Virus record (IMG/VR): IMGVR_UViG_3300016478_000186
Span: 1 to 42,495 of that record
DNA length: 42,495 nt
Reading direction: 5' to 3' (one strand)
Source of the DNA: a virus
Taxonomy: Duplodnaviria; Caudoviricetes
The notes under the pieces are model-generated. The model saw only the letters and a program-made list of their open reading frames with translations, ran no database searches and was not told the origin of the DNA. Positions within the stretch are counted from its first letter, which is position 1; every line of letters starts with the position of its first letter. Positions 6,768 through 39,875 of this stretch are shown piece by piece. Made by a program: the position numbers and the translations under genes.

Positions 6768-7091
6768 TCACTTGGCCTTGCTCCAAGTCCTGCCCGCGCA
6801 GATGTCCTGAACCATGCGCAAGGTCGGCTTCTTTTCAAACAGGCTGTAGATATCGCAGGCCTGATACCCGGCTTCGTGCAGCGTCTTGATCATCATGGCG
6901 CCGACCCGAGTGGTCTTCGCCAGTCGGTGCTTTTCGCCTCGCTTCACTCCGCGCAGGCCTAGCCGATTCATCTGGCGGAATACCGCTGTCTCGGTGCGAC
7001 CGATATCGGCGGCGATTTCTACCGCAGTCTTGATGCCAGCCCACTTCCTCAAGTGGGCGTTGTCGGTTTCTGTCCATGGCTTTCCGGCCAT
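6768..7091 (-). CDS. putative HTH DNA-binding protein
   Basis: 'KPWTETD..HL...TAVEIAADIGRTETAVFRQMNRLGL' HTH; 'GEKHRLAK' and 'VQDICAGRTW' resemble DNA-binding tails of phage homing nucleases. Confidence 0.7.
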   Translation of the reverse strand: MAGKPWTETDNAHLRKWAGIKTAVEIAADIGRTETAVFRQMNRLGLRGVKRGEKHRLAKTTRVGAMMIKTLHEAGYQACDIYSLFEKKPTLRMVQDICAGRTWSKAK

Positions 7092-7747
7092 CACTTCACC
7101 TCGGCCAGTGCGGCGCATATCTCGCCCCACAAAACTGCGTGACGGTGCGGGTCTAGTTCCTCCTGGGCCTTGGCCATCAACCCCGCCAGCTTGTCGCGCT
7201 GGGTCAGCAGCTTCAACTCACGCTCGGCACCCATTCCGTTCAACCGACATTGTTCCATAATCTCCGCATCCCGCCTGTCGCGCTGCTGGCGCAGTCGGTC
7301 GTTATCCTCGGCTTCCGTGCACAGGTCGTTGCGCAGATCACAAACCTGCTGGCGCAGCCGCTCTATCTCTGCCAGCGCCGGGATTCCATGCGACTGGCTG
7401 TAGAACTTGTCGAGCTTGCGGTGCAGGTCGCTGATTTCCTCCCGCAGCTCGGCAATGGTGGCGTCACGCTCAGCGGCAACCATTCCAGCTATACAGCGCG
7501 CAAAGATCAGACAGCTCGTCGTTGTTACCGATGACTTGTCAGTTGTAGGCCAGTCGAAAAAAGCATCAGCCTCTGCCTGAACACGCTCGCGCGATATTGC
7601 CTCACCCTCCGGCTGGCGCGGGGCGGCTAGGATGGCGCGGAGTTCCTTTACCACCTCGTTCTGATACGAGCCAAAGTGTGCGGCAACGGCTTCGATCCCT
7701 TGTGTTGCCCGCTCCAGCAGCTCGCGGTCAATCGTTACTTTGGTCAT
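7091..7747 (-). CDS. hypothetical coiled-coil phage early protein
   Basis: MTKVTIDRELLE start and coiled-coil heptads typical of mosaic early genes; GGAGA RBS. Confidence 0.7.
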   Translation of the reverse strand: MTKVTIDRELLERATQGIEAVAAHFGSYQNEVVKELRAILAAPRQPEGEAISRERVQAEADAFFDWPTTDKSSVTTTSCLIFARCIAGMVAAERDATIAELREEISDLHRKLDKFYSQSHGIPALAEIERLRQQVCDLRNDLCTEAEDNDRLRQQRDRRDAEIMEQCRLNGMGAERELKLLTQRDKLAGLMAKAQEELDPHRHAVLWGEICAALAEVK

Positions 7748-7942
7748 TTCAGCTATCTCCCATCATGTCGTCGCCAGCGCAGTGGCCCTGGCAGCCTGGC
7801 GTGCCGCACTCTGGGCAACGCTCGTCGCTTTCTTCCTCGTCGTCGGCGTCGTCGCCCATGTAACGGCCTGCGCACCACCCGCAAATCGAACATGAATCAC
7901 CGCCGCTGCATCCGAGGTAGGTGCCGCAGCTTGTGTTGGGCG

Positions 7943-8581
7943 TCAGCCAGAAACTTTCGCGATGACTTCGCGAATCCGGTCAAGGCTCCATCCAATAGGG
8001 AAATGCTCTGTCTCAACAAACTGAGCTGCCGCCCTCAACGCTTCGAGCATTCGCGCCTCGTTGTATTCGGCCTCGTAGGCATCTGCCGCCGCATCCATGC
8101 TGCCTTGGTTGATGTGCAGCCCTGCCAGCGGGTGCGGCTCCGCCTGCTCTTGCAGGCGCTTGATCCAGTCGGTATCACTCCATCCGGCAGGCGTTGGCGG
8201 CCTCGCCCCATCATGTCCAAGGAGCTCTCTATCGAGCGCAGTGTCAAGTTCGATAGCAGAACTCGGCGCAATGTAGGTCGGGCGCGGCAAGTTGATCGCA
8301 CAAAACTCTGCGTGGCCCTCACCGTTGGAAATGATGGCAAACTTCCGTCGCAACAGGCGGTAACGCTCGGCGTCCTTCGCCATGCGCTTCAACTGCTCGC
8401 TTACCGAGACATCGCCGCCGTCGGGTTGGTCCATGTAGTACGCTCCCGGCAGAGCTGCCGCGCACTTGTCCAGTTCGGCGGTCAGCCTGTCCGCTATCAC
8501 ACGGACCTCGTCGCGCTCTCTTGCCATCTTGCATGCGTGCTTCTGGGCTTCATGGAGTTCGTAGTCGTCTGGGTCAAACAT
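7943..8581 (-). CDS. cassette-borne hypothetical phage-type protein
   Basis: GAGGA RBS; 'KDAERYRLLR' motif common in phage early proteins; stop abuts the cassette boundary. Confidence 0.75.
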   Translation of the reverse strand: MFDPDDYELHEAQKHACKMARERDEVRVIADRLTAELDKCAAALPGAYYMDQPDGGDVSVSEQLKRMAKDAERYRLLRRKFAIISNGEGHAEFCAINLPRPTYIAPSSAIELDTALDRELLGHDGARPPTPAGWSDTDWIKRLQEQAEPHPLAGLHINQGSMDAAADAYEAEYNEARMLEALRAAAQFVETEHFPIGWSLDRIREVIAKVSG

Positions 8582-8681
8582 CGTACTGTCCTCGGTATGG
8601 TGCGGTTTTCGGTATGGTCGCGCCCAACTGGCGCATCAACTCGGCGTTGCTTTCAACTTTCGTTATTGCTTTACGTTCCAT
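8574..8681 (-). CDS. cassette-borne 35-aa peptide (MERKAITKVESNAELMRQLGATIPKTAPYRGQYDV)
   Basis: Read manually; GAGGAG/GAGA upstream; stop overlaps the start of 7943-8581. Confidence 0.5.
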   Translation of the reverse strand: MERKAITKVESNAELMRQLGATIPKTAPYRGQYDV

Positions 8682-8703
8682 TTCTCATTCTCCTCGCGTT
8701 GCC

Positions 8704-8761
8704 GCCCAACAGTTCATTCAAGCCGACGCCGTTCCGGCGCGGCTTAATTCAGGTGTTCTGG
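8704..8761 (+). mobile_element. attC site (59-base element)
   Basis: GCCCAAC-AGTTC-ATTCAAGC-CGACGCCG-TTC-CGGCGCG-GCTTAAT-TCAGGT-GTT: canonical R''/5 nt/L''(8)/stem/L'(7)/6 nt/R' layout with extrahelical bases on the left arm, closely resembling short aadA/aadB-type attC sites. Confidence 0.9.
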
Positions 8762-8780
8762 CAGTACAGATAACGCCCGC

Positions 8781-9137
8781 TCACTTCCCCACCTCCTGCC
8801 CGGTGCTGGCGGCAAGGGCGGCGCGGCGAGCGTCAACGAACTGTTGCAGTTCCTTGTCGAGAGCCTGCCACTCAAGTGCCGGCGGGTCGCTCATTACGGC
8901 GATGCCGAAACTTCCTCGGCCACGGTGGATTTCGCAGTTTTTCATCCGGCGAATCAGATCATGCTCGCGTTCCACGTCTTCCAACACCTTTGCCAGCTTG
9001 TCGCGCTGCTGGCGGAGGGCGTCGCGTTCGGCTTCAAGGGCGGCGTAGTCGGAGTACATTACCCAAAAACCAAAGGGGTTTTCTTCTGAATCCCAATCGG
9101 GGCCGTAAATTTCGTACCGTTTGACTTCATTGCTCAT
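8781..9137 (-). CDS. hypothetical phage protein
   Basis: MSNEVKRYE...G.WV.YSDYAALEAERDALR pattern of phage early proteins; ATGA overlap. Confidence 0.72.
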   Translation of the reverse strand: MSNEVKRYEIYGPDWDSEENPFGFWVMYSDYAALEAERDALRQQRDKLAKVLEDVEREHDLIRRMKNCEIHRGRGSFGIAVMSDPPALEWQALDKELQQFVDARRAALAASTGQEVGK

Positions 9138-9559
9138 GGTTCGCTGCCTTTGGTTGGTTGTTGTGCAAGTTCTGCCTCCAGTCTTCTGGCCTCTTCCCAC
9201 CATGCTTTTTCACGCTCGGTAGATACTCGCCTCATCTTTTGGCGTAGGACGTATGTGCCATACCCCATATCCTTCTCGGCCTTCCCCTTTGGTTCACCTC
9301 GGATTATCCGCCGACAGTACTCCACCATATCCTTGTCGCTGACACGGTGATGCTGACGCTTACCACGATACGCCAGCGGCCATGGATCGGGGATTCCACG
9401 GCGTGCCAAATATCGGCGCAGATCGGTGGCCGACGCGAAGCCAACATAGTGTGCGGCATACTCAACGCCCACAGTCTTGTGGAGGCGGGCTGCTGCTTGA
9501 CCGATGGTCTCACCAGTTGCCTTGTAGTACTCCTCCGGGGTGGATCCTCGGGCGGTCAC
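9134..9559 (-). CDS. hypothetical protein, possibly HTH
   Basis: AGGAGG RBS; tightly packed operon. Confidence 0.65.
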   Translation of the reverse strand: MTARGSTPEEYYKATGETIGQAAARLHKTVGVEYAAHYVGFASATDLRRYLARRGIPDPWPLAYRGKRQHHRVSDKDMVEYCRRIIRGEPKGKAEKDMGYGTYVLRQKMRRVSTEREKAWWEEARRLEAELAQQPTKGSEP

Positions 9560-9560
9560 T

Positions 9561-9770
9561 TTACACCTCCTGCTTGGTGCTGGCTTTCTCCAAAGCCCAC
9601 AGCTCAGTTTTCAGTTTTTCAATCTTGCGCTTATCGTCGTAGTACGCCTGACCATCAGCGTAGGGCAGGCGCTCACGTAGTTCGGCTATGCGATTTTTCA
9701 GCATCCTGATGCTGTCCGTATGCTCGCGGGTATAGCGGTCGTGCAGCGTTTCGTCGTTATGCGTTGGCAT
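9561..9770 (-). CDS. hypothetical protein
   Basis: TAATG overlap; coiled-coil-like. Confidence 0.6.
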   Translation of the reverse strand: MPTHNDETLHDRYTREHTDSIRMLKNRIAELRERLPYADGQAYYDDKRKIEKLKTELWALEKASTKQEV

Positions 9771-13499: not shown

Positions 13500-13950
13500 T
13501 TCCGCTGGTTACACTGTAACCGGGGCGCGAAACCCTGCGCGATGCTCTGCGGCCCGCATGGCGCCTGGGTCGCCGGTGTAACCGTGGGTGTAACCGGCCG
13601 CCTTGGTTGCGGTTACGGTTACGGTTGCAGGTGTAACCGGAAACCGCCCGAAAAGGGCGTTTTTGGGGGTCGGTTACGCCTCGGTTGCGCCATTGTTACT
13701 TTAGAAATCAAACACTTAGCGATTTGTAACCGTGTAACCGGAAACGACAGCCATATATCTCTTTCTTCTTCTTCTTCGTATCATGATCTACCCATCATGT
13801 ATTTTTTCTCTAGGGGGTTATCAAATACTGGTTACATTGGTTACATCTGTGTCTCTCTTATATATATTTCCTTATAAATCAGGTATTTATTATTATAGGG
13901 GCCTGTAACTGGCACTGTAACTGAGCTGTAACTGGCTGTAACTGCCCGTT
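13500..13950. repeat. putative replication origin: clustered GTAAC(C/T)/GTTAC repeats around an AT-rich core
   Basis: About 15 copies of GTAAC in both orientations; most AT-rich stretch of the window (about 13750-13895); lies between divergent operons. Confidence 0.7.
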
Positions 13951-19041: not shown

Positions 19042-19590
19042 GTGGCAGCGAACGATCCCGAAAGGCAAGGAGGCACGCGAGTGGCCGTACCGGATGAGCG
19101 GTGGGCTGCTGCTCGTGCGCTGTACGAGGGCACTGCCGGCATGACCCTGAAGCGGGTTTCTGAGGAGACCGGCATCCCGAAGGCTACCGTCGAGGTGCGC
19201 GCCAAGACCGAGAAGTGGCGGAAGAATTACCCGCCGGCCAATCTCGGGCCGATATCGCCCCTGGCTCAGGAGGCTGCGGACAAGTACCAGGCCAAGATCG
19301 ATGATGCCGGCCCGGAGGTCACCGCCGAGCAGAAGACCGAGGCCGTGCTGGAAACCGTGGCCGAGGTGGCCGTCGACCAGCGCGCGCAGGTGCTCGATCG
19401 CCATCGCCGCGAGTGGGCGGCTCCTCGAAAGCTGTCGTATGAGGCTGTGCAGAATCGCGACTTCGAGCGCGCCAAGCTGGCCAAGATCACCGCTGAAACC
19501 CTCAAGCTGATTCAGGACGGCGAGCGCAAGGCCTGGGGCCTGGAAGGCGCCGACCCGGACCAGCCCGTTTTTGTCATCGAGCGTGGTTGA
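19042..19590 (+). CDS. terminase small subunit
   Basis: N-terminal HTH ('WAAARALYE...LKRVSEETGIPKATVEVRAKTEKW'), coiled coil, 'LKLIQDGERKAWGL' C-terminus typical of TerS; GAGGAG RBS. Confidence 0.78.
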   Translation: MAANDPERQGGTRVAVPDERWAAARALYEGTAGMTLKRVSEETGIPKATVEVRAKTEKWRKNYPPANLGPISPLAQEAADKYQAKIDDAGPEVTAEQKTEAVLETVAEVAVDQRAQVLDRHRREWAAPRKLSYEAVQNRDFERAKLAKITAETLKLIQDGERKAWGLEGADPDQPVFVIERG

Positions 19591-19594
19591 ACCT

Positions 19595-21055
19595 ATGCAT
19601 ACCCCTGAAATGCCGCAGATTGTCCTGCGTCCGATTGAGAGCCTGGTCGCCTACGCGCGGAATGCTCGCACCCACTCACCCGCCCAGCTCGAGAAGCTGC
19701 AGGCCTCCCTGCGCGAGTTCGGCTGGACCAACCCGGTGCTGGCCGACGCCATGGGCATCGTGGCTGGCCATGGCCGGACCATGGCCGCCGCCGAGATGTA
19801 CAAGCGCGGCGAAGCCATCCGCTTCCCGAACGGCGCGCCCATCCCGCTCGGCATGGTGCCGGTGGTGGACTGCACCGGCTGGTCCGACCAGCAGCGCAAG
19901 GCCTACATCCTGACCGACAACCGCAGCGCCCTCGACGCCGGCTGGGATGAGGAGCTGCTGCGCCTCGAACTGGCCGACCTGCGCGACGACGGCTACGACC
20001 TCAGCCTGACCGGCTTCGAGGATGTGGAGCTGGCCGCTCTGTTCGAGGGCGTGGTCGATCCCGAGCAGAACGACCGGGATCCGGATGATGTTCCGGATGA
20101 ACCTGTCGTGCCGCTGTCGCGCGAGGGTGATGTCTGGGTCTGCGGCCCGCACCGCGTCATGTGTGGGTCGTCGACCGAGATCGCCTGCTGGGACAAGCTG
20201 ATGCAGGGAGAGCTGTGCGATGCGGTGTGGACCGACCCGCCTTATAACGTGAACTATGAGTCCAAGCTGGCCGGGTCGATCAAAAACGACAACATGAAGG
20301 ACTCGGCTTTCCGCCAGTTCCTGCTGGACGCCTACGCTGGCATGTTCTCGGTGATGAAGGCCGGCGCGCCGATCTACGTGGCCCATGCCGACACCGAGGG
20401 CTTCAACTTCCGCGGTGCTTTCCGCGATGCGGGCTTCAAGCTGTCCGGCTGCCTGATCTGGCGGAAGAACAGCCTGGTGCTGGGGCGCTCTGACTACCAG
20501 TGGATGCACGAGCCGATTTTGTATGGCTTCAAGCCGGGCGCCGCCCACCGCTGGTACGGCGGCCGCAAGCTGACCACGATCATCGAGTACGGCGAGAACG
20601 GCCCCATTCGCCAGCTCGAAGACGGCCGCTGGGCTATCACCGTCGGCGACAACGTGCTGGTGGTGTCTGGCGAGGCCACCATCGAGGAGCATCCTGGGTC
20701 GGTGATCTACCACGACAAGCCCTCGCGCTCCGAACTACATCCAACGTGCAAGCCTGTGACCCTGATCGAGAAGATGCTGCGGGCCTCTGCTCGTCCTGGC
20801 GACATCATCGTTGACGCCTTCGGTGGCTCCGGCTCGACGCTGATCGCTGCCGATCGGATGGGCATGTCGGCTCGCCTCATGGAGCTGGACCCGAAGTTCG
20901 TCGACGTCATCACTCGCCGCTACTGGCAGTACACCGGGCGGCGCCCTGTGCATGCCGTGACTGGCGAACCCTTCCCAGAAGAAGGTGGGGCTCGTGCAGA
21001 CGCTCACGATCACGCTGCTGGCGCCGAGACCGCTACGTCAGGAGATTTTTTCTAG
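19595..21055 (+). CDS. ParB-like N-terminal domain fused to an N6/N4 DNA methyltransferase
   Basis: 'YARNARTHS..Q...L.EFGWTNPVL...IVAGHGR' (ParB-N); TDPPYNV catalytic motif; 'HPTCKP', 'DAFGGSGST' SAM motif. Confidence 0.92.
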   Translation: MHTPEMPQIVLRPIESLVAYARNARTHSPAQLEKLQASLREFGWTNPVLADAMGIVAGHGRTMAAAEMYKRGEAIRFPNGAPIPLGMVPVVDCTGWSDQQRKAYILTDNRSALDAGWDEELLRLELADLRDDGYDLSLTGFEDVELAALFEGVVDPEQNDRDPDDVPDEPVVPLSREGDVWVCGPHRVMCGSSTEIACWDKLMQGELCDAVWTDPPYNVNYESKLAGSIKNDNMKDSAFRQFLLDAYAGMFSVMKAGAPIYVAHADTEGFNFRGAFRDAGFKLSGCLIWRKNSLVLGRSDYQWMHEPILYGFKPGAAHRWYGGRKLTTIIEYGENGPIRQLEDGRWAITVGDNVLVVSGEATIEEHPGSVIYHDKPSRSELHPTCKPVTLIEKMLRASARPGDIIVDAFGGSGSTLIAADRMGMSARLMELDPKFVDVITRRYWQYTGRRPVHAVTGEPFPEEGGARADAHDHAAGAETATSGDFF

Positions 21056-21152
21056 GGTACTATCCATCCTGCAAGGCTAGGGAGGCCACCCGAAAAGCGA
21101 TCTAGTCCGTCGCCTGCCTTGCTCACCATTAAGGACTTTACTTTGGACAAGT

Positions 21153-21719
21153 ATGCAAATCATCACTCGCCAGCAGGCGCTATCTGCTGGGCTTCCTAAA
21201 TACTTCACGGGCAAGCCGTGTGTGAGGGGGCATCTTTCGACGCGCTCAACCCGTGGCAAGGCTTGCGATCAGTGCATGTATGAATTTGGTCGCGCCTACT
21301 ACGCGGATGGTCGTGCGAAAGAATGCCAGCGCAGGCATCGCGCTAAAAATGTGGAAAAGTACCGTGAGTACGACCGCAATCGCGGAAAGCGCAATCGAGC
21401 GGATCCTGTGAAGCGGCTAGCTTCAAACATGCGCTCGTTGGTCAACCAGCACATGCGAAAGCGCGGGTTCTCTAAGAAATCGAAGACATGCCAGATACTC
21501 GGCTGCTCCTGGGAGGAGTTCGCCGCCACCATTGAGCGGCAGTTCCTGCCTGGCATGACTTGGGAAAATCGCCACCTCTGGCAAATTGACCACATCATCC
21601 CGATGTCCACAGCAAAGACCGAGGAAGACGTTCTCGCCTTGAACCACGTTTCGAATCTGAGGCCGATGTGGCGAGAGGATAACCGCGCCAAAAGCGGAAA
21701 GGTGCTGTTCCTAATTTGA
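21153..21719 (+). CDS. HNH homing endonuclease-like protein
   Basis: 'YFTGKPCVRGH' N-terminus; 'WQIDHIIP...NHVSNLRPMW..DNRAK'; related to 430-1203. Confidence 0.82.
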   Translation: MQIITRQQALSAGLPKYFTGKPCVRGHLSTRSTRGKACDQCMYEFGRAYYADGRAKECQRRHRAKNVEKYREYDRNRGKRNRADPVKRLASNMRSLVNQHMRKRGFSKKSKTCQILGCSWEEFAATIERQFLPGMTWENRHLWQIDHIIPMSTAKTEEDVLALNHVSNLRPMWREDNRAKSGKVLFLI

Positions 21720-22722: not shown

Positions 22723-25700
22723 ATGACGACGCCAATCCCCTCCGCAGCGCTGCTCGGCAACAAGCGGCTACTGCTCGTAAAGTCCACGGCCTCTGCTGTT
22801 GAAGCGGAGCTGCTGAAAGCCACCGTGTCGAAGACCATCGTCGTGCCTGCGTACACGCGCAAGGATGGCGTGGTGGTGCCGGCCCACACCAAGGTGGTGC
22901 ACTACGACCCATCGAAGGACGTCGCCGACGTTCTTTCGGGCAAGGGGTCGCACTCGCAGAAGCAGGCGCACAAGAAGCTGTCGAAGCTCGGGCACTGGGA
23001 GTCGCTCGAGGACTCGCACAAGCTGGCGCATATCCTGTCCTCGGCCACGAATATTCAGCAGAAGGCGTCGGCCTCCGCTGCCGTGTCTGGCTGGAAGGCG
23101 TCGATGCTGGCCGGGAAGAAGCCGACCGCCTCCCAGCAGGCCGCGTTTGATGCGCTGCCGGCCGACAAGCAGGCTGCGCTGCAGGCTGAGGTGGGCAAGC
23201 CGGTTACAGCTCCGGTTGCGGCTCCGGTTACAGAGCCTGTCGCTGCTGCCCCTGCCTACCAGCCCGTGCCCAGCGCCCTGGGCGGCCTTGGGAACGAGGG
23301 CCCGGTCATCCATGTGGATGCGCCCGACTACGCTGCTGTCGAGAAAGCGCTCGGCCTGGAGCCTGGCTCCCTGGAAGGCGAGGACTCGACCACCTACACC
23401 ATCAAGAACGCTGCCGGCCAGACCTTCTCGGTCTACAAGCACGGCGGCGGCCTATCGGTGCGAACCTCTGGCGCGAACAAGGACACCTCCAGCGCGCTTG
23501 CCCTTGCTGACCACCTGGCGTTGATCGGCAAGCCGGCCGAGGCTTCGCCTGCTGCCGTTCCCCTGGTTACCGGTGCCGACGGCCAGCCGAAGGTGTTCTA
23601 TCACGGCGGTACCGGAAGTGTGGATTCCGCCGACCTCAAGCCGCTGACCTTCTTCACCTCGGACAAGGAAACCGCGCTTTCCTACGTCGGCAACAACTCC
23701 GAGGACGAAAAGCTGCACGCCGTGCACCTGGCGATCGGCAAGGTGGCCACTCCCGATGATGTGAAAGCCGCTGCGAACAAGGTCGGCCTGACTGGTGACG
23801 ATGTCGGCGTCGATGAGGAGTACCATGCTGGCTACGAGTACCTGTCGCCGCACCTGAACCCGCACGTTGAGAAGGTCCTGGCCGAGCTCAAGAAGCAGGG
23901 CTTCGACGGCGCGCACTTCCCGACCGACTTCAAGCTGTCCGGTGAGCTGATGCCTGGCGGGTCCTGGGTCGTGTTCGGCAAAGGCCAGGTGGTACCGGCT
24001 TCCGGCGATCATGGTCTGCAGGGCGTCGGCTCATGGGCGCACCTGTCGCAGTACAAGTCGCAGCATCCGATGTTCATCACTGCCCAGGCAAAGGCCTGGC
24101 TGGCGGACAACCCGGGCAAGGGCGCCGAGCTCTCCTCGACGCTGGTAGACCTCGGCCACCTGGATATTGCGAAGAAGCTCGGGGTCTACACCCCGCCGAG
24201 CTGGGCGTCTCCGCAGGAGAAGGCGGCCGCTGCTGGCCCGAAGGAGGGCGACACCAAGCCTGCGGCCGACGGCGGCACGCTGGTGCTCAAGGATGGCCAT
24301 TGGGTCAAGCAAGGCGGTGAAGCGCCGAAAGCTAAGCAGCCTGCTAGCCTCGCGATGCCAGCTTTCGAAGAGGGCAAGGAGAAGGCTGGCGTCAAGGCCC
24401 ACTACGAGAAGGTCGGCCAGAAGGTGCTCGACCTGGCCTCCGCCGGCGACGCAGCCGGCCTCGAGAAGCTCAAGGCCGACGGCCTGAAGCCGAACTCGAA
24501 GGGCAAGGTCGGTAACACCTGGAAGGGCAAGACCCAGAACAGCAAGCTGCTGCTCGCACTGCATGACCAGGCGCTGGCGCACACCAAGGGCAACACCACT
24601 GCGGATCAGCCAGCTCAGGCCGTAAGCGCTGAACCCGTTCCGGCACCGGCTGCTCCGGCGGCCGAGGCCAGCCCCATCGCTGCATCCAAGCTCACCCAGA
24701 TCCCGTGGGATGCCCAGCTCCTGCCTGATGCCAACTCCAACGCCAAGAGCCACAACGGCCAGGTCGCCAAGATCAAGGCCATGGCCGAGGCTGGTGATGT
24801 GGCTGGCCTGCAGGCATACGTCGATGCCAAGGCTGGCGCCAAGCAGACCTATGCGAAGAAGCAACACCTGCTCGCTGCTACTGCCCTGGCCGCGCTGAAG
24901 GAGGACGGTGCTCCCGCTGCTCCGGAGGCTAACCCGCTGGCTGGCGTTTCTGCTGCTGAAGCGATCGCCAAGAACCCTCATATGCCCCAGCTAAAGCTCA
25001 AGGAGCTTTGGATCGACGCGAACGCCGACAAGGTGGGCGCTCAGGCTGAGTGGGCCATGGCGGTCAACCCGGCGCCGGCCAAGCCTGCGCGCCTGGCCGA
25101 ATCCCAGAAGAAGATGATCGACGATATCGCCACCTGGCCGGATGCCAAGTACCACCTGGCCAATATCGTCGGCGGTGGCAATCCGGCTGCTGCGGCTTAC
25201 GCTCAGCAGCTGCTGGACGCGAAGAAGGCCACCGTCGCGGTCGACAAGCCGAAGCCTCCCACCGGCATCGAGGAGCACTCCGAAGCTGGCGCCTACCTGG
25301 CCGATGCGGCGTATGGCCTGGAGCACAAGGACCTGCCGACCCTGCAGGACGTAATCACCGCGCTGCAGGGCGACATGCCTGCGCCTGGCTCGGACGCGGA
25401 TAAGGTCCTGCAGTTCGCCAAAAATGCGTACAAGCATGTCGCTGGCGCTGCGCCTGCCACCTCGAAGCCTGCCGACCCTACTGTTGCCGAGCTGGCTCCC
25501 ATGATGGAGGCCGTCAATTCCGCTGGCTCGGCGGAAGGCGCCAAGAAAGCCGCGCTCCGGTACCTGAACGCTTTCCCGGACTCGCAGCTGGCTATCAACC
25601 AGGTGCACGACGCCCTGGTCAACGCTGGGCATGCCGCTATGGCCGCCGCCTTCGCGAAGGACGGCAAGTCGGGCCTGGAGGCGTTCAAGCCTGCCGCTCC

Positions 25701-28284
25701 TGCTGGCCCATCCAAGGTCACCGCCGAGCTGTTCCACAACACCTCGGAGGGGCATAACAAGTTCTGGGCCGTGTCGGTCAACGGCAACGTAGTGAAGACC
25801 ACCTACGGCAAGATCGGCTCGAAAGGGCAGACCACCGAGAAGGTGTTCGGCTCCAAGGCCGAGGCGCAGTCGCACGCCACCACGCTGATGCTGCAGAAGC
25901 ACAAGGGCGGTTACGTGCCGGCCGGCAAGACCGAGCACGAGTATGCCGCGCCTGCTGCCGAGCAGGGCCCGAAAGATGGCGACACCAAGCAGGGCGCCGA
26001 CGGCATGCTGGTGTTCACGGATGGGCGCTGGCACAAACTGTCGGAGAAGGCCAAGGCGGCGATCGATTCCCTATCGCTTGATGACCTTAAGGAATTTGCT
26101 GACACACCGGGAATGCCGGTTGCGCAAAACGCCTACATCAAGGCGAAGTTGGCGGGCGCCGAACCCATGGACTCCTGGCAGCAGACCGGCGGCGAGGAGT
26201 CCGATGCCTGGGCGTTCACCGAGAAGGACCCGAGCTTCAGTGGCGTCAACACGCTGATGGCGGATATGGACGGCCTTTCCGTCTATATCGCCTACGAGCC
26301 TGAGTCGGCAACCTTCGAGGTGGGCCAGATTCATCCTGGCGCCGACGAGCCGGAGGCCGATCACTTCAGTGACCCGAAGAAGGCACTCGACTACCTGGCC
26401 AGCATGTACGGCGCCTCGGTCGAAATGCCGAGCCTGGGCCAGGTGGAGAAGCTGACTGGCAAGGTCAGCGGCGCGACCTACTCGCCCAAGGTTCCGACCC
26501 CTGACAACTACGTGCCTTCGTCCGGTACCGGCTACGAAGCCATGGATGGGTGGAAGCAGACCGGCCCGCAGGGCGGCTCGAACCCGGGCGGCCGGTTCCG
26601 CGACGAGTTCGGCGTGGAGTGGTACTGCAAATTCCCGGCGGACGAGGATATCGCCAAGTCCGAGGTTCTGGCTGCCAAGCTGTACGCTGCTCTGGGCGTC
26701 TCGGGGCAGGATTGCAAGCTGGTGACCAAGGGCGGAAAGGTCGGCATTGCCTCGCGCTGGATCGATGTGAAGAAGGGCACTGCTGCCCAGCTCGCCAAGC
26801 TGGACGGCACCGCCTCTGGCTTCGCTGCTGATGCGTGGCTGGCAAACCATGACGTTGTCGGTCTGGCCTTCGACAACCTGCAGATCGGTCCCGACGGCAA
26901 GGCTCACCGCGTCGATGCTGGTGGCTCGCTGCAGTACCGGGCCCAGGGCGGAAAGAAGGCGTTCGGTCCTACCGTGTCCGAGATAGATTCCCTGCGCGAC
27001 CCGGCGATCAACTCCAAGTCTGCGGCCGTGTTCGGCAAGATGACTGAGGCCGACATCACCGCCTCGGTGGCAAAGGTGCTGGCGCTGCCTGACTCGGCGA
27101 TCACCAACCTGGTGAACCAGTACGGCCCTGGCTCCGATGCGGACAAGCTGGCGCTGGCGCAGACCCTGATCGCGCGCAAGGCTGACCTGGCTAAGAAGTA
27201 CCCGAAGGCGGCCAAGGCACCGAAGAAGCGGCTCGACCCCACCAACCTGCCGGTGGATGCCGCGATGCTGCCGAAGCCGCACGACTTTGAAAACTGGAAT
27301 GGTCCGGGCCAAGGCCTGAGCTCGAAGGCGCACGTTAACAAGGCAAACGCGGCGATCGAGTACCAGATTCTGGGCGTGGCGCAGATGGGCAACCTGCCGA
27401 AGCTGCAGGCCTTCGAATATGCCCAGATCGACAAGGAAACGGGCCAGCCGAACGGCAAGATGCTGCCGATCGCCAACCACCCGTCGAAGCATGTCGTTCA
27501 GTACCATGCCGACCTGGTGACCATGCTCGACGAAATGGCAAACCCGCCGGAGCCGCTGAAGGTCTTCCAAGAGACTGATATCAGCACGCTGGAGCAGCTG
27601 TCCGCGTCGCTGCCGCCGAAGAAGTTCGGTACCACCGTCGACTCGGTGAAGTCCAACGAGAAGCTGGGCTTCTGGGTGGTGCTCGGCGTGGCTCCTGGCG
27701 CGGTCAACCTGGCGCCTAAGAAGTTCATGGCCTACAGCCAGGCCGCTATCGCCGCCGGCTACGAGAAGTACAAGCAGGGCACCAGCCTGGCGAAGCACTT
27801 TATCAAGTCGGTGCAGGCCTCCGGCTCGTATAACGACCTGTTCCGCAACGGCAAGAAAACCGACCACTCTGGAAACCTGTTGTCCGATGTGGCCAAGGCC
27901 GCGCTGCAGCATGCGACCACTCAGCCGGAGGGGACCTCGCTGTACCGCTGGCAGAAGATGACCGATGCCATGGTGCAGAAGATCATGGCCGCGCCGGAGG
28001 GTACCGTCTTCCAGGCTACCGGCCCGATGTGCACTTCCTACGACCCGACCGCGACGAAGCACTTCGGTACCCACCGGGTAACGGTTCGCTACGCCAAGGG
28101 CGCGAAGGCTGTCGAATCCTTCGGATCGAATGGCTATCAGTCGGAGAAGGAGGTAACCACCCTGCCAAACTCTCGGTTTGTCATCCTGAAGCGCAACATG
28201 GTACCGGATGTGGAGCACGGCAATCCGCACAAGACCCGCCTGGAGCTCGAGGTGTTGATGCTTCCGCCGGACCTTGGACTGTGA
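22723..28284 (+). CDS. giant polyvalent protein: two ADP-ribosyltransferase-like domains, WGR domain, HipA/PI-kinase-like domain
   Basis: YHG...FFT...Y...GFDG...VVF (ART-like, about 23590-23980); HNKFWAV...TYGKIGSKGQ (WGR, about 25730-25920); GGSNPGG...YCK...EVLAAKLY...NHD...DN...RVDAG (kinase-like, about 26570-26950); LYR...CTS...EKE (R-S-E ART, about 27940-28260). Confidence 0.82.
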   Translation: MTTPIPSAALLGNKRLLLVKSTASAVEAELLKATVSKTIVVPAYTRKDGVVVPAHTKVVHYDPSKDVADVLSGKGSHSQKQAHKKLSKLGHWESLEDSHKLAHILSSATNIQQKASASAAVSGWKASMLAGKKPTASQQAAFDALPADKQAALQAEVGKPVTAPVAAPVTEPVAAAPAYQPVPSALGGLGNEGPVIHVDAPDYAAVEKALGLEPGSLEGEDSTTYTIKNAAGQTFSVYKHGGGLSVRTSGANKDTSSALALADHLALIGKPAEASPAAVPLVTGADGQPKVFYHGGTGSVDSADLKPLTFFTSDKETALSYVGNNSEDEKLHAVHLAIGKVATPDDVKAAANKVGLTGDDVGVDEEYHAGYEYLSPHLNPHVEKVLAELKKQGFDGAHFPTDFKLSGELMPGGSWVVFGKGQVVPASGDHGLQGVGSWAHLSQYKSQHPMFITAQAKAWLADNPGKGAELSSTLVDLGHLDIAKKLGVYTPPSWASPQEKAAAAGPKEGDTKPAADGGTLVLKDGHWVKQGGEAPKAKQPASLAMPAFEEGKEKAGVKAHYEKVGQKVLDLASAGDAAGLEKLKADGLKPNSKGKVGNTWKGKTQNSKLLLALHDQALAHTKGNTTADQPAQAVSAEPVPAPAAPAAEASPIAASKLTQIPWDAQLLPDANSNAKSHNGQVAKIKAMAEAGDVAGLQAYVDAKAGAKQTYAKKQHLLAATALAALKEDGAPAAPEANPLAGVSAAEAIAKNPHMPQLKLKELWIDANADKVGAQAEWAMAVNPAPAKPARLAESQKKMIDDIATWPDAKYHLANIVGGGNPAAAAYAQQLLDAKKATVAVDKPKPPTGIEEHSEAGAYLADAAYGLEHKDLPTLQDVITALQGDMPAPGSDADKVLQFAKNAYKHVAGAAPATSKPADPTVAELAPMMEAVNSAGSAEGAKKAALRYLNAFPDSQLAINQVHDALVNAGHAAMAAAFAKDGKSGLEAFKPAAPAGPSKVTAELFHNTSEGHNKFWAVSVNGNVVKTTYGKIGSKGQTTEKVFGSKAEAQSHATTLMLQKHKGGYVPAGKTEHEYAAPAAEQGPKDGDTKQGADGMLVFTDGRWHKLSEKAKAAIDSLSLDDLKEFADTPGMPVAQNAYIKAKLAGAEPMDSWQQTGGEESDAWAFTEKDPSFSGVNTLMADMDGLSVYIAYEPESATFEVGQIHPGADEPEADHFSDPKKALDYLASMYGASVEMPSLGQVEKLTGKVSGATYSPKVPTPDNYVPSSGTGYEAMDGWKQTGPQGGSNPGGRFRDEFGVEWYCKFPADEDIAKSEVLAAKLYAALGVSGQDCKLVTKGGKVGIASRWIDVKKGTAAQLAKLDGTASGFAADAWLANHDVVGLAFDNLQIGPDGKAHRVDAGGSLQYRAQGGKKAFGPTVSEIDSLRDPAINSKSAAVFGKMTEADITASVAKVLALPDSAITNLVNQYGPGSDADKLALAQTLIARKADLAKKYPKAAKAPKKRLDPTNLPVDAAMLPKPHDFENWNGPGQGLSSKAHVNKANAAIEYQILGVAQMGNLPKLQAFEYAQIDKETGQPNGKMLPIANHPSKHVVQYHADLVTMLDEMANPPEPLKVFQETDISTLEQLSASLPPKKFGTTVDSVKSNEKLGFWVVLGVAPGAVNLAPKKFMAYSQAAIAAGYEKYKQGTSLAKHFIKSVQASGSYNDLFRNGKKTDHSGNLLSDVAKAALQHATTQPEGTSLYRWQKMTDAMVQKIMAAPEGTVFQATGPMCTSYDPTATKHFGTHRVTVRYAKGAKAVESFGSNGYQSEKEVTTLPNSRFVILKRNMVPDVEHGNPHKTRLELEVLMLPPDLGL

Positions 28285-31279: not shown

Positions 31280-32281
31280 ATGGATTCGACGTTTGAGATC
31301 AAGCTGGGCGACTGCCTGGAGAGCTTGCGCGCCATGCCGGATAAATCGGTGCACTGCTGCATCACCAGCCCGCCCTACTTCGGCCTGCGCGATTATGGTG
31401 TCGACGGGCAGATCGGCTTGGAGCCTACGCCGGAAGAGTTCGTGCAGGCGCTGGTCAAGGTGTTCCGCGAGGTGCGCCGCGTGCTGCGCGATGATGGGAC
31501 GCTGTGGCTGAACATTGGGGACAGCTATGCCCGAACCGGCGGCACCGACCGCAAGGTTTCTGCCAGTGCCAAGGTGGGCAGCACGCGCAACACGCTGGAG
31601 CAGATGAGCGACAGAACGAGCCGCGCCGCTTCGCTTGGCCTGAAGGATAAAGACCTGATCGGCATCCCGTGGATGCTGGCCTTCGCCCTGCGCGCCGATG
31701 GCTGGTATCTGCGCCAAGACATTATCTGGCACAAGCCGAACCCGATGCCGGAGAGCGTGCGCGACCGCTGCACGAAGGCGCATGAGTACGTGTTTCTGCT
31801 GTCGAAGGGGCCGAAGTATTACTTCGATGCGGATGCGGTTAAGGAGCCTGCCGTGTGCGACCGCATGCGCGGGCCAGCCGAGCATGCCGACAAGAAAAGC
31901 ACCAACGGCAATGGCGGTCTGAGCAGGCGCGAGCCACAGCCTTTTCGGAACCGTCGCAGCGTCTGGTCGGTAGCCACTCGCTCTTACAAGGGCGCCCACT
32001 TCGCCACGTTTCCGCCCGACCTGATCGAGCCGTGCATTTTGGCAGGCTGCCCGGCTGGCGGCACTGTGCTCGACCCGTTCGGCGGCAGCGGCACTACGGC
32101 AGGCGTCGCCTTGGCCCATGGGCGCAACGCCATACTGTGCGAGCTGAACCCGGAGTACGCCGCGCTGGTGCCGGCGCGCATCGAGAGCATCCTTGTCGGT
32201 TACGGCAAGAAGCCCAAGACCAAGCTCAAGCCCGTTTCCGCCACCAAGCAGAAGGAGCTATTCGATGGCGCTCACTGCTGA
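31280..32281 (+). CDS. N4-cytosine/N6-adenine DNA methyltransferase (beta class)
   Basis: 'TSPPYFGLRDY', 'IIWHKPNPMPESVRDR', 'HFATFP', 'LDPFGGSGTT'. Confidence 0.93.
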   Translation: MDSTFEIKLGDCLESLRAMPDKSVHCCITSPPYFGLRDYGVDGQIGLEPTPEEFVQALVKVFREVRRVLRDDGTLWLNIGDSYARTGGTDRKVSASAKVGSTRNTLEQMSDRTSRAASLGLKDKDLIGIPWMLAFALRADGWYLRQDIIWHKPNPMPESVRDRCTKAHEYVFLLSKGPKYYFDADAVKEPAVCDRMRGPAEHADKKSTNGNGGLSRREPQPFRNRRSVWSVATRSYKGAHFATFPPDLIEPCILAGCPAGGTVLDPFGGSGTTAGVALAHGRNAILCELNPEYAALVPARIESILVGYGKKPKTKLKPVSATKQKELFDGAHC

Positions 32282-39416: not shown

Positions 39417-39875
39417 TTAGATGTGACACCAAGTCTTGCGGCTGATCACATCTGAAATTGTTTGTCTGGCAACTCCGAATTCATCTGCTAGTTCGCGATG
39501 TGTTGAGTGCGATCCCCTGATTCTGATGACGTCAGCCTCTGTCAGCTTTGACTTTCCATGGTTTTCACCGGTGTTGTCGATGGCTGGCATTGCTGCTCGC
39601 CCTTTGCTGCTCATGTCGATCATGTTGTCTTGGTGGGTGCCAAGACTTAAATGCCTCGGGTTGATGCACGCTGGCTGGTCGCACGAGTGCATCACCAGCA
39701 TTCCGCCAGCTATGGCGCCATATTTCAGTGCGTATGCAACTCGGTGCGCTCGCTTCTGTCCTGCATGATTGAACCACCCGTACCCATCCTTGTCTTTGCT
39801 GAACGGCCAAAGGATGCATTCTTCAGTATCGGACTCGATGGCTCCGGTCATGAAGGTGATTTTGTTCGATCGCAT
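39417..39875 (-). CDS. HNH endonuclease (HNH_3-like) with C-terminal HTH
   Basis: 'ECILWP...GYG...AHRVAY...VMHSCDQPACINPRHLSLGTHQDNMID', 'GENHGKSKLT'; GGAGG RBS. Confidence 0.9.
   Translation of the reverse strand: MRSNKITFMTGAIESDTEECILWPFSKDKDGYGWFNHAGQKRAHRVAYALKYGAIAGGMLVMHSCDQPACINPRHLSLGTHQDNMIDMSSKGRAAMPAIDNTGENHGKSKLTEADVIRIRGSHSTHRELADEFGVARQTISDVISRKTWCHI

Follow-up and report, generated by a model that had tools for sequence, protein, structure and literature searches.

How does a stretch of DNA with the build of an integron cassette come to lie inside a small gene of a phage, and which enzyme placed it there? The question is raised by a locus in IMG/VR record IMGVR_UViG_3300016478_000186, a member of the Caudoviricetes; the window analysed here is this entire record (42,495 bp, linear, 45% complete). 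It encodes a primase, a terminase and a portal, and the nearest relatives of the terminase belong to a group of phages of 86–95 kb (70% identity to Aeromonas phage ST4, 68% to Pseudomonas phage Touem01 and 59–60% to Pseudomonas phages Jeremy and Dolphis). Judging from the relatives of the terminase and of other genes alone, the host is likely of the Pseudomonas type. The locus sits within a leftward run of about 20 small genes (13413 to 5834) that are closely coupled. At the head of this run is a promoter-like site on the minus strand (13892–13921), identified only by its match to a consensus (10 of 12 positions); four matches to this consensus were found, versus 2.0 in shuffled sequence.

The window holds several other features of possible interest. 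An int-alpA RNA motif (RF02996, 40.6 bits) is present at 21070–21135 (plus strand), between the gene of a ParB-methyltransferase fusion and an endonuclease gene. There are two DNA methyltransferases (19571–21055 and 31280–32281) and three free-standing HNH or endonuclease VII genes (430–1203, 21153–21719 and 39417–39875). For the 1853-residue protein encoded at 22723–28284 (plus strand), only a short stretch near residues 1010–1067 was matched.

The interrupted gene lies on the minus strand between an upstream early gene with a weak Lar-like PHROG match (8781–9140, minus strand), whose stop overlaps its start, and a downstream early gene (7091–7747, minus strand), which retains its own RBS. 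The upstream gene ends in a stretch of 45 bp (8779–8825), of which a 90% copy lies at 9564–9584; in every run compared, many different contigs join within this stretch, which looks like a shared linker for early-gene exchange. The 5′ piece of the split gene (8756–8784, minus strand) begins with a GTG and has an N-terminus that is invariant in our alignment (A2); it now encodes an 11-residue peptide, ending at a stop at 8749–8751. The 3′ piece (7749–7935, minus strand; 61 codons) encodes two Cys-rich modules and an acidic linker. The ribosome-binding site (8791–8797) and the GTGA overlap with the upstream gene, both described in the earlier note on this DNA, are present in the sequence. Between the two pieces lies the inserted unit of 820 bp (7936–8755, top strand), with a GC content of 58.7% versus 62% in the flanks.

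That excision of this unit would restore the gene was the central claim of the earlier note, and natural proteins bear it out. Deletion of 7936–8755 yields a frame of 216 nt with a single terminal stop, and the insertion falls inside codon 10, where it severs the first Cys pair. Twenty-eight stored natural proteins (cluster members included) run contiguously over the junction; the closest of these (P0023) agrees with the protein restored by excision at 71 of 72 aligned positions and differs from it by one Asp in the acidic repeat. A protein search with the 3′ piece matched 21 of 21 candidates (one being the window's own fragment), eight of which start with the N-terminus that is encoded here across the cassette. 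The empty site was also found at 11 loci with the whole N-terminal module, ten viral and one in Pseudomonas chaetocerotis; two pairs of these are identical around the site, and two weak genome matches were left out. All 11 carry G|TT at the cut, so the breakpoint is the same in relatives that lack the unit; none of them carries an attC or a second insertion at the target site. As the gene is whole in other phages and a cut fragment here, the filled state is derived.

The target gene was absent from the cultured phages searched, its family was found in one of 401 Pseudomonadaceae genomes (the already known one), and a metagenome scan returned relatives of the C-terminal module only. Its product is likely a pair of zinc-binding modules, although the Pfam zinc-ribbon matches obtained for a relative were weak and under the cut-off; the structure model of the whole protein (pLDDT 53) was too poor for use. 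Proteins that share the C-terminal Cys module (7749–7860 in the window; P0011–P0022, L002–L006) differ in their N-termini, of which there are at least three unrelated kinds, and the module of the N-terminal half also occurs alone (L032–L042). The split gene is thus itself a mosaic of two modules.

The unit is bounded by G|TT at both ends, with a core complementary to the R″ box of the attC site at its right end. This core (7935–7941, plus strand), the R′ box of the circular attC, contains the left junction (7935/7936) and is the exact complement of R″, as the earlier reading had it; taken alone, such a heptamer is weak evidence, with 0.2 copies expected per 2 kb and three present on the plus strand. 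The two junctions share five bases (8753–8757), not three. The two extra bases are explained by a common variant of the attC spacer, which ends in GT in 11 of 40 listed sites. A target duplication of 5 bp, of the transposon type, was ruled out, as terminal inverted repeats are lacking and the spacer variant is common.

The attC site itself (8704–8761, plus strand) has the canonical R″-L″-VTS-L′-R′ layout with an AAC/GTT core and an extrahelical base. It comprises R″ (GCCCAAC), a 5-nt spacer, an 8-nt L″ with an extra C, a stem-loop, a 7-nt L′, a 6-nt spacer and G|TT, with the crossover at 8755/8756; the bases 3′ of the crossover derive from the target gene, and the stop of the 5′ peptide lies inside the site. 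Both strands fold better than 200 of 200 shuffled sequences (z −3.5 for the bottom and −4.0 for the top strand). A covariance model built on 27 other attCs, with the window site and its near copies left out, scored it at 52.1 bits (E 3.6e-11), the next of five matches in the window reaching 9.8 bits. The description of a canonical attC at this position thus stands, and it is the sole significant match in the window; two sites returned by a rule-based attC finder, at 13514 and 18705, were rejected by the covariance model.

Sequences matching this attC were found in cassette attCs of 3090 plasmid records, such as those of aac(6′)-IIa (90%) and aadB (86%), and the identity to a class 1 integron attC in phage P1 is 96% over 50 nt. 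Comparison by eye with attC-aadA7 (supplement of Qi et al.) showed the same L boxes and stem, with three spacer and two loop bases differing. At the level of sequence, the site is a near twin of the attCs of class 1 resistance cassettes, and its likeness to attC-aadA7 leads us to infer that it could be recombined by an integron integrase.

Upstream of this site, at 8622–8652 (plus strand), lies a possible collapsed inner attC, in which R″ and spacer are joined directly to an L′-like heptamer, spacer and G|TT. The unit may thus consist of two fused cassettes instead of one, as this segment resembles a stemless attC. Its score, the third-best in the window and evaluated post hoc, was matched by 28 of 3000 random segments, and the segment was not recovered by the attC covariance model. 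The earlier note had suggested looking for the same unit at other loci. Among the public-run contigs and other loci searched, the identical 820-bp unit was seen at this site only, and it was absent from the cultured phages searched.

The main cargo gene (7943–8581, minus strand) encodes 212 residues and has 278 homologues. Its start is overlapped by an ORF of 35 codons (8574–8681, minus strand; RBS at 8690–8695), which is absent from the protein collection and is possibly a leader for translational coupling. The cargo product is a mosaic helical phage early protein. It matched no PHROG, Pfam or NCBIfam family, and residues 30–92 match hypothetical proteins of Pseudomonas phages. The best ESM Atlas score was 0.87; a cluster resembling Ead/Ea22 scored 0.84 and is no more than a lead. 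The AlphaFold model (pLDDT 64.6, pTM 0.29) gave no Foldseek match at E ≤ 0.001, and a search of 401 genomes of the class Gammaproteobacteria, of which 400 were scored, found no copy of the cargo in a run without a positive control.

Relatives of the cargo reveal how it moves. Among 19 proteins that share its C-terminal segment, 16 contain the Pro-Asn encoded by the cassette core, and beyond it they have 14 different tails; the remaining three, the window protein and two near copies, end just before Pro-Asn. Since the 14 tails diverge right after the crossover codon, the family of cassettes is mobile. Compared with L009, the window lacks one base at the crossover, with which the cargo frame would continue into the 3′ piece of the split gene. 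The cargo gene occurs with another tail in attC-bounded inverted cassettes of L010 and L011, the latter a phage of a different type with DNA polymerase and 7-deazaguanine genes, and partial homologues were found in arrays of 4 to 11 attCs. The fetched DNA contained an attC at 8 of 23 cargo loci (L010, L011, L016, L017, L018, L024, L025 and L031, of which L024 and L025 overlap the same sequence). None was accepted at the remaining 15 (e.g., L009, L012 and L013), so cargo modules occur outside intact cassettes too.

Two of these loci deserve a separate description. The cargo-gene cassette of L011 (2418–3160; G001) heads an operon in the 7-deazaguanine-type phage; there, the attC terminates at a G|TT that is not part of an att site and lies in a divergent promoter region, and the cassette's other end abuts a half-deleted attC. 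On the viral contig L010 (926–1866), an attC near-identical to that of the window heads an inverted DNA methyltransferase cassette.

Canonical cassettes carry a gene that reads towards the attC on the top strand. Here, both cargo ORFs are on the minus strand, which is also that of the neighbouring genes, and the earlier description of the cargo as phage-type, reversed relative to the attC and co-oriented with the early operon is accurate. When orientation was called by one symmetric rule for viral and bacterial cassettes, 34 of 72 viral cassettes were inverted, 12 canonical and 26 unclear, versus 0 inverted, 22 canonical and 2 unclear among 24 cassettes of Pseudomonadaceae. Within the sample compared, inversion is a trait of phage cassettes; the viral set carries a bias, having been reached by way of cargo relatives and one attC type, and it includes pieces of bacterial integrons. 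In the literature covered, mostly outside the subscription journals, we found no paper on inverted phage cassettes and none on a cassette that splits a phage gene with a known empty allele. One complete phage genome of 36.8 kb (G002; L088 13319–16560 and 2909–5029) carries two attC arrays on opposite strands (nine and three matches), with genes mostly inverted where the orientation could be called and no tyrosine recombinase match.

Compared with known systems, the locus is closest to the single cassettes inserted in bacterial genomes that have been termed SALIN (Loot et al., bioRxiv 10.1101/2022.09.11.507474). It has a single attC and no other att site or integrase nearby, in a record that is 45% complete and with a collapsed inner attC possible; its target is a GWT cut after the G and, as the 11 empty loci show, was not itself an att site. 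As in SALINs, the insertion disrupts a gene and puts promoterless cargo under the control of a resident promoter; the attC used in the assays of that study (aadA7) and the window site are near twins. It differs from them in that theirs are bacterial genomes and canonical cassettes, whereas here the recipient is a phage and the cargo phage-type and inverted; furthermore, the empty allele has been defined to the base, the filled one has persisted in nature, and the CRGM motif is absent. Within the 45% of the genome available, there is neither the intI nor the attI of a complete integron, as had been noted before, and the left junction is gene sequence rather than attI. The single attC match also sets the locus apart from CALINs, which have at least two clustered attCs.

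The attC clusters reported in phages (Qi et al. 2023, PMC9892861) are likewise attCs in phage genomes without IntI, and five of them were recombined by IntI1. The portion of that paper covered here describes only clusters of at least two attCs, single insertions having been excluded, and reports no empty site or split gene. In its TJE1 array, the genes and three attCs lie on one strand in the canonical way, which is the opposite of the layout in the window. Class 1 integron cassettes share with the locus the G|TT crossover and the attC sequence family, the window site being 86–96% identical to the attCs of aac(6′)-IIa, aadB and other cassettes; unlike them, the window is without intI, attI and Pc, the gene orientation is reversed, and the cargo is not a resistance gene. 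Both the SALIN/attG route and phage attC clusters are already published. The locus is a natural attG-type single-cassette insertion in a phage, in an inverted, phage-type variant.

Which enzyme made the insertion? Cassettes bearing attC-aadA7 are inserted at GWT sites by IntI1, IntI2 and IntI3, also inside genes and in both directions, and about 10% of such insertions can be expressed (Loot et al., 10.1101/2022.09.11.507474). Insertions of aadB in RSF1010 and pRAY are precedents for secondary sites, as cited by Loot et al., and the consensus of such sites is GWTMW or GNT (PMC4618277). The earlier note held that the reconstructed target, GTTCT, fits GWTMW. The match is real and discriminates little, as GWT occurs at 2126 and GWTMW at 461 sites in the window, and the CRGM hotspot motif expected at +6 to +9 (main text of Loot et al.) is replaced by GCAG. 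This is a shifted pattern, which would make the target an ordinary, rarely used site; activity at shifted patterns was more than 100-fold lower (Loot et al., 10.1101/2022.09.11.507474). IntI over the cut-off was found in 58 of 151 Pseudomonadaceae genomes, among them the genome that carries the whole target gene. Host IntI is, we infer, the simplest candidate enzyme, and we consider it likely that the 820-base cassette at G|TT in codon 10 was inserted once, by a host IntI, at a plain genome site. The earlier proposal that phage early genes move as cassettes by means of a host integrase therefore stands in its first part, as cargo relatives do move as cassettes; the host integrase is plausible only.

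The course of events would then be as follows. The donor circle would have come from a phage-borne array of inverted cassettes, and a host IntI would have acted in a cell shared by donor and recipient phage; both IntI and prophages are induced by the SOS response, as pointed out by Qi et al. 2023 (PMC9892861). The circle, with its fully paired, folded attC (−19.7 kcal/mol), would have recombined at a GTT on the early operon's non-coding strand. As the cassette gene is on the attC's bottom strand and the GTT on the non-coding strand, the cargo comes to lie in line with the leftward early transcript. After insertion, the cargo would be expressed from its own RBS, and the gene downstream retains its RBS. 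The net effect would be the loss of a dispensable gene and the gain of the cargo, in a stable allele that is not toggled.

The same cassette and crossover could have been served by a phage-encoded enzyme, IntI-like or Xer-like and supplied by a helper or co-infecting phage, in which case inverted cassettes would be a phage-run system. The inverted layout, phage-specific in our sample, would be explained by a separate promoter and enzyme, and relatives of the window phage do encode a tyrosine recombinase (one in each of five cultured relatives). However, the recombinase tested from these relatives is not IntI (16.5 bits versus a cut-off of 265), and none of the five genomes carries an attC. PF00589 was found in none of ten viral records with cargo or attC relatives, two of which are 100% complete and carry arrays, and IntI1 substrates include near twins of the attC. 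The window contains no tyrosine recombinase, which means little in a record that is only 45% complete. Taken together, we regard a phage-encoded enzyme as unlikely.

To follow the inserted allele in nature, contigs of 7 of 21 listed public runs (X1–X7) were compared with the window; the runs with the stretch are freshwater, wastewater and sediment metagenomes, and no RNA run containing it was found. One Logan contig of X1 spans 6800–8808 with zero differences; this run probably represents the source sample and does not count as independent. Contigs that reach 31 nt or more to either side cross the left junction in X1, X2, X3, X4 and X6 (five studies, 2018–2025) and not in X5 or X7. Among the matches listed, contigs cross the right junction in X1 and X7 (one study) and also, with 27 nt on the shorter side, in X3 and X5. 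The filled contig of X3 has the extra Asp codon of P0023. In X2–X4, few or no contigs cover the genes on either side of the split gene; such gaps prove nothing, and the filled module might sit in other phage backbones in these runs. A single stable event appears to underlie the filled allele in the five studies.

These data bear on the suggestion of the earlier note that insertion and excision could act as a switch, with the activity of a host integrase (SOS) toggling the split gene by insertion and precise excision. Such excision would restore the gene, as the natural empty allele with 71 of 72 identical positions illustrates, and filled and empty forms do occur together in wastewater runs: X3 has a joint from 7932 to 8753 that skips exactly 820 bases, X4 a loose end at 7937 and X6 a short piece ending at 7937. 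However, the co-occurring empty contigs are relatives rather than revertants, that of X3 differing from the window at 14 positions in 130 nt. R-box pairing is weaker in the integrated attC than in that of the circle (−14.0 versus −19.7 kcal/mol), which would favour staying integrated. Of 24 clones with insertions at genome sites, only 2 showed appreciable excision, some of it imprecise (Loot et al., 10.1101/2022.09.11.507474); the want of a second insertion among the empty loci also speaks against toggling. We accordingly see only a slim chance that the locus is a reversible switch, and this suggestion was not upheld.

Ordinary mosaic exchange among phages, by microhomology or illegitimate recombination over the five shared bases, would make the attC a mere passenger. 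The junctions do share these bases, the region is highly mosaic (many contigs join at 8779–8825), and such routes have been proposed for phage CALINs by Qi et al. (PMC9892861). Nevertheless, both ends lie exactly at the attC crossover and the 14 tails of the cargo family diverge at the same codon; chance microhomology would not repeatedly choose the crossover codon, and the probability of this explanation is very small. That the locus is an assembly chimera joined at the attC, a many-copy repeat whose depth peaks at 8680–8773 in the runs, has a negligible probability, given the X1 contig that covers the locus without a difference, the bridging of the non-repeat left junction in four further studies and that of the right junction in a second sample.

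Cassette insertion at plain genome sites has been shown in the laboratory in bacteria, and few natural examples come with an empty site on record. This phage locus offers both alleles at single-base resolution, and its filled allele has been present for at least seven years in fresh and waste water. How phages gain small early genes with clean boundaries is a question of long standing, for which the locus exemplifies a site-specific route. The attC family that it shares with antibiotic-resistance cassettes suggests a recombination currency common to the cassette pools of phages and integrons.

It is possible, and we offer it as a tentative proposal, that phages keep their own pool of backwards cassettes, which host integrases paste into arrays and at any GTT in early operons. 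If this is true, the backwards layout would silence phage genes in a host integron and keep them live in a phage operon, and, as the crossover AAC would be read in frame, each paste could swap protein tails. Recombination at attC sites would then directly generate mosaic early proteins in phages, and this locus, with its clinical-type attC, would connect the gene pool of phages with that of class 1 integrons.
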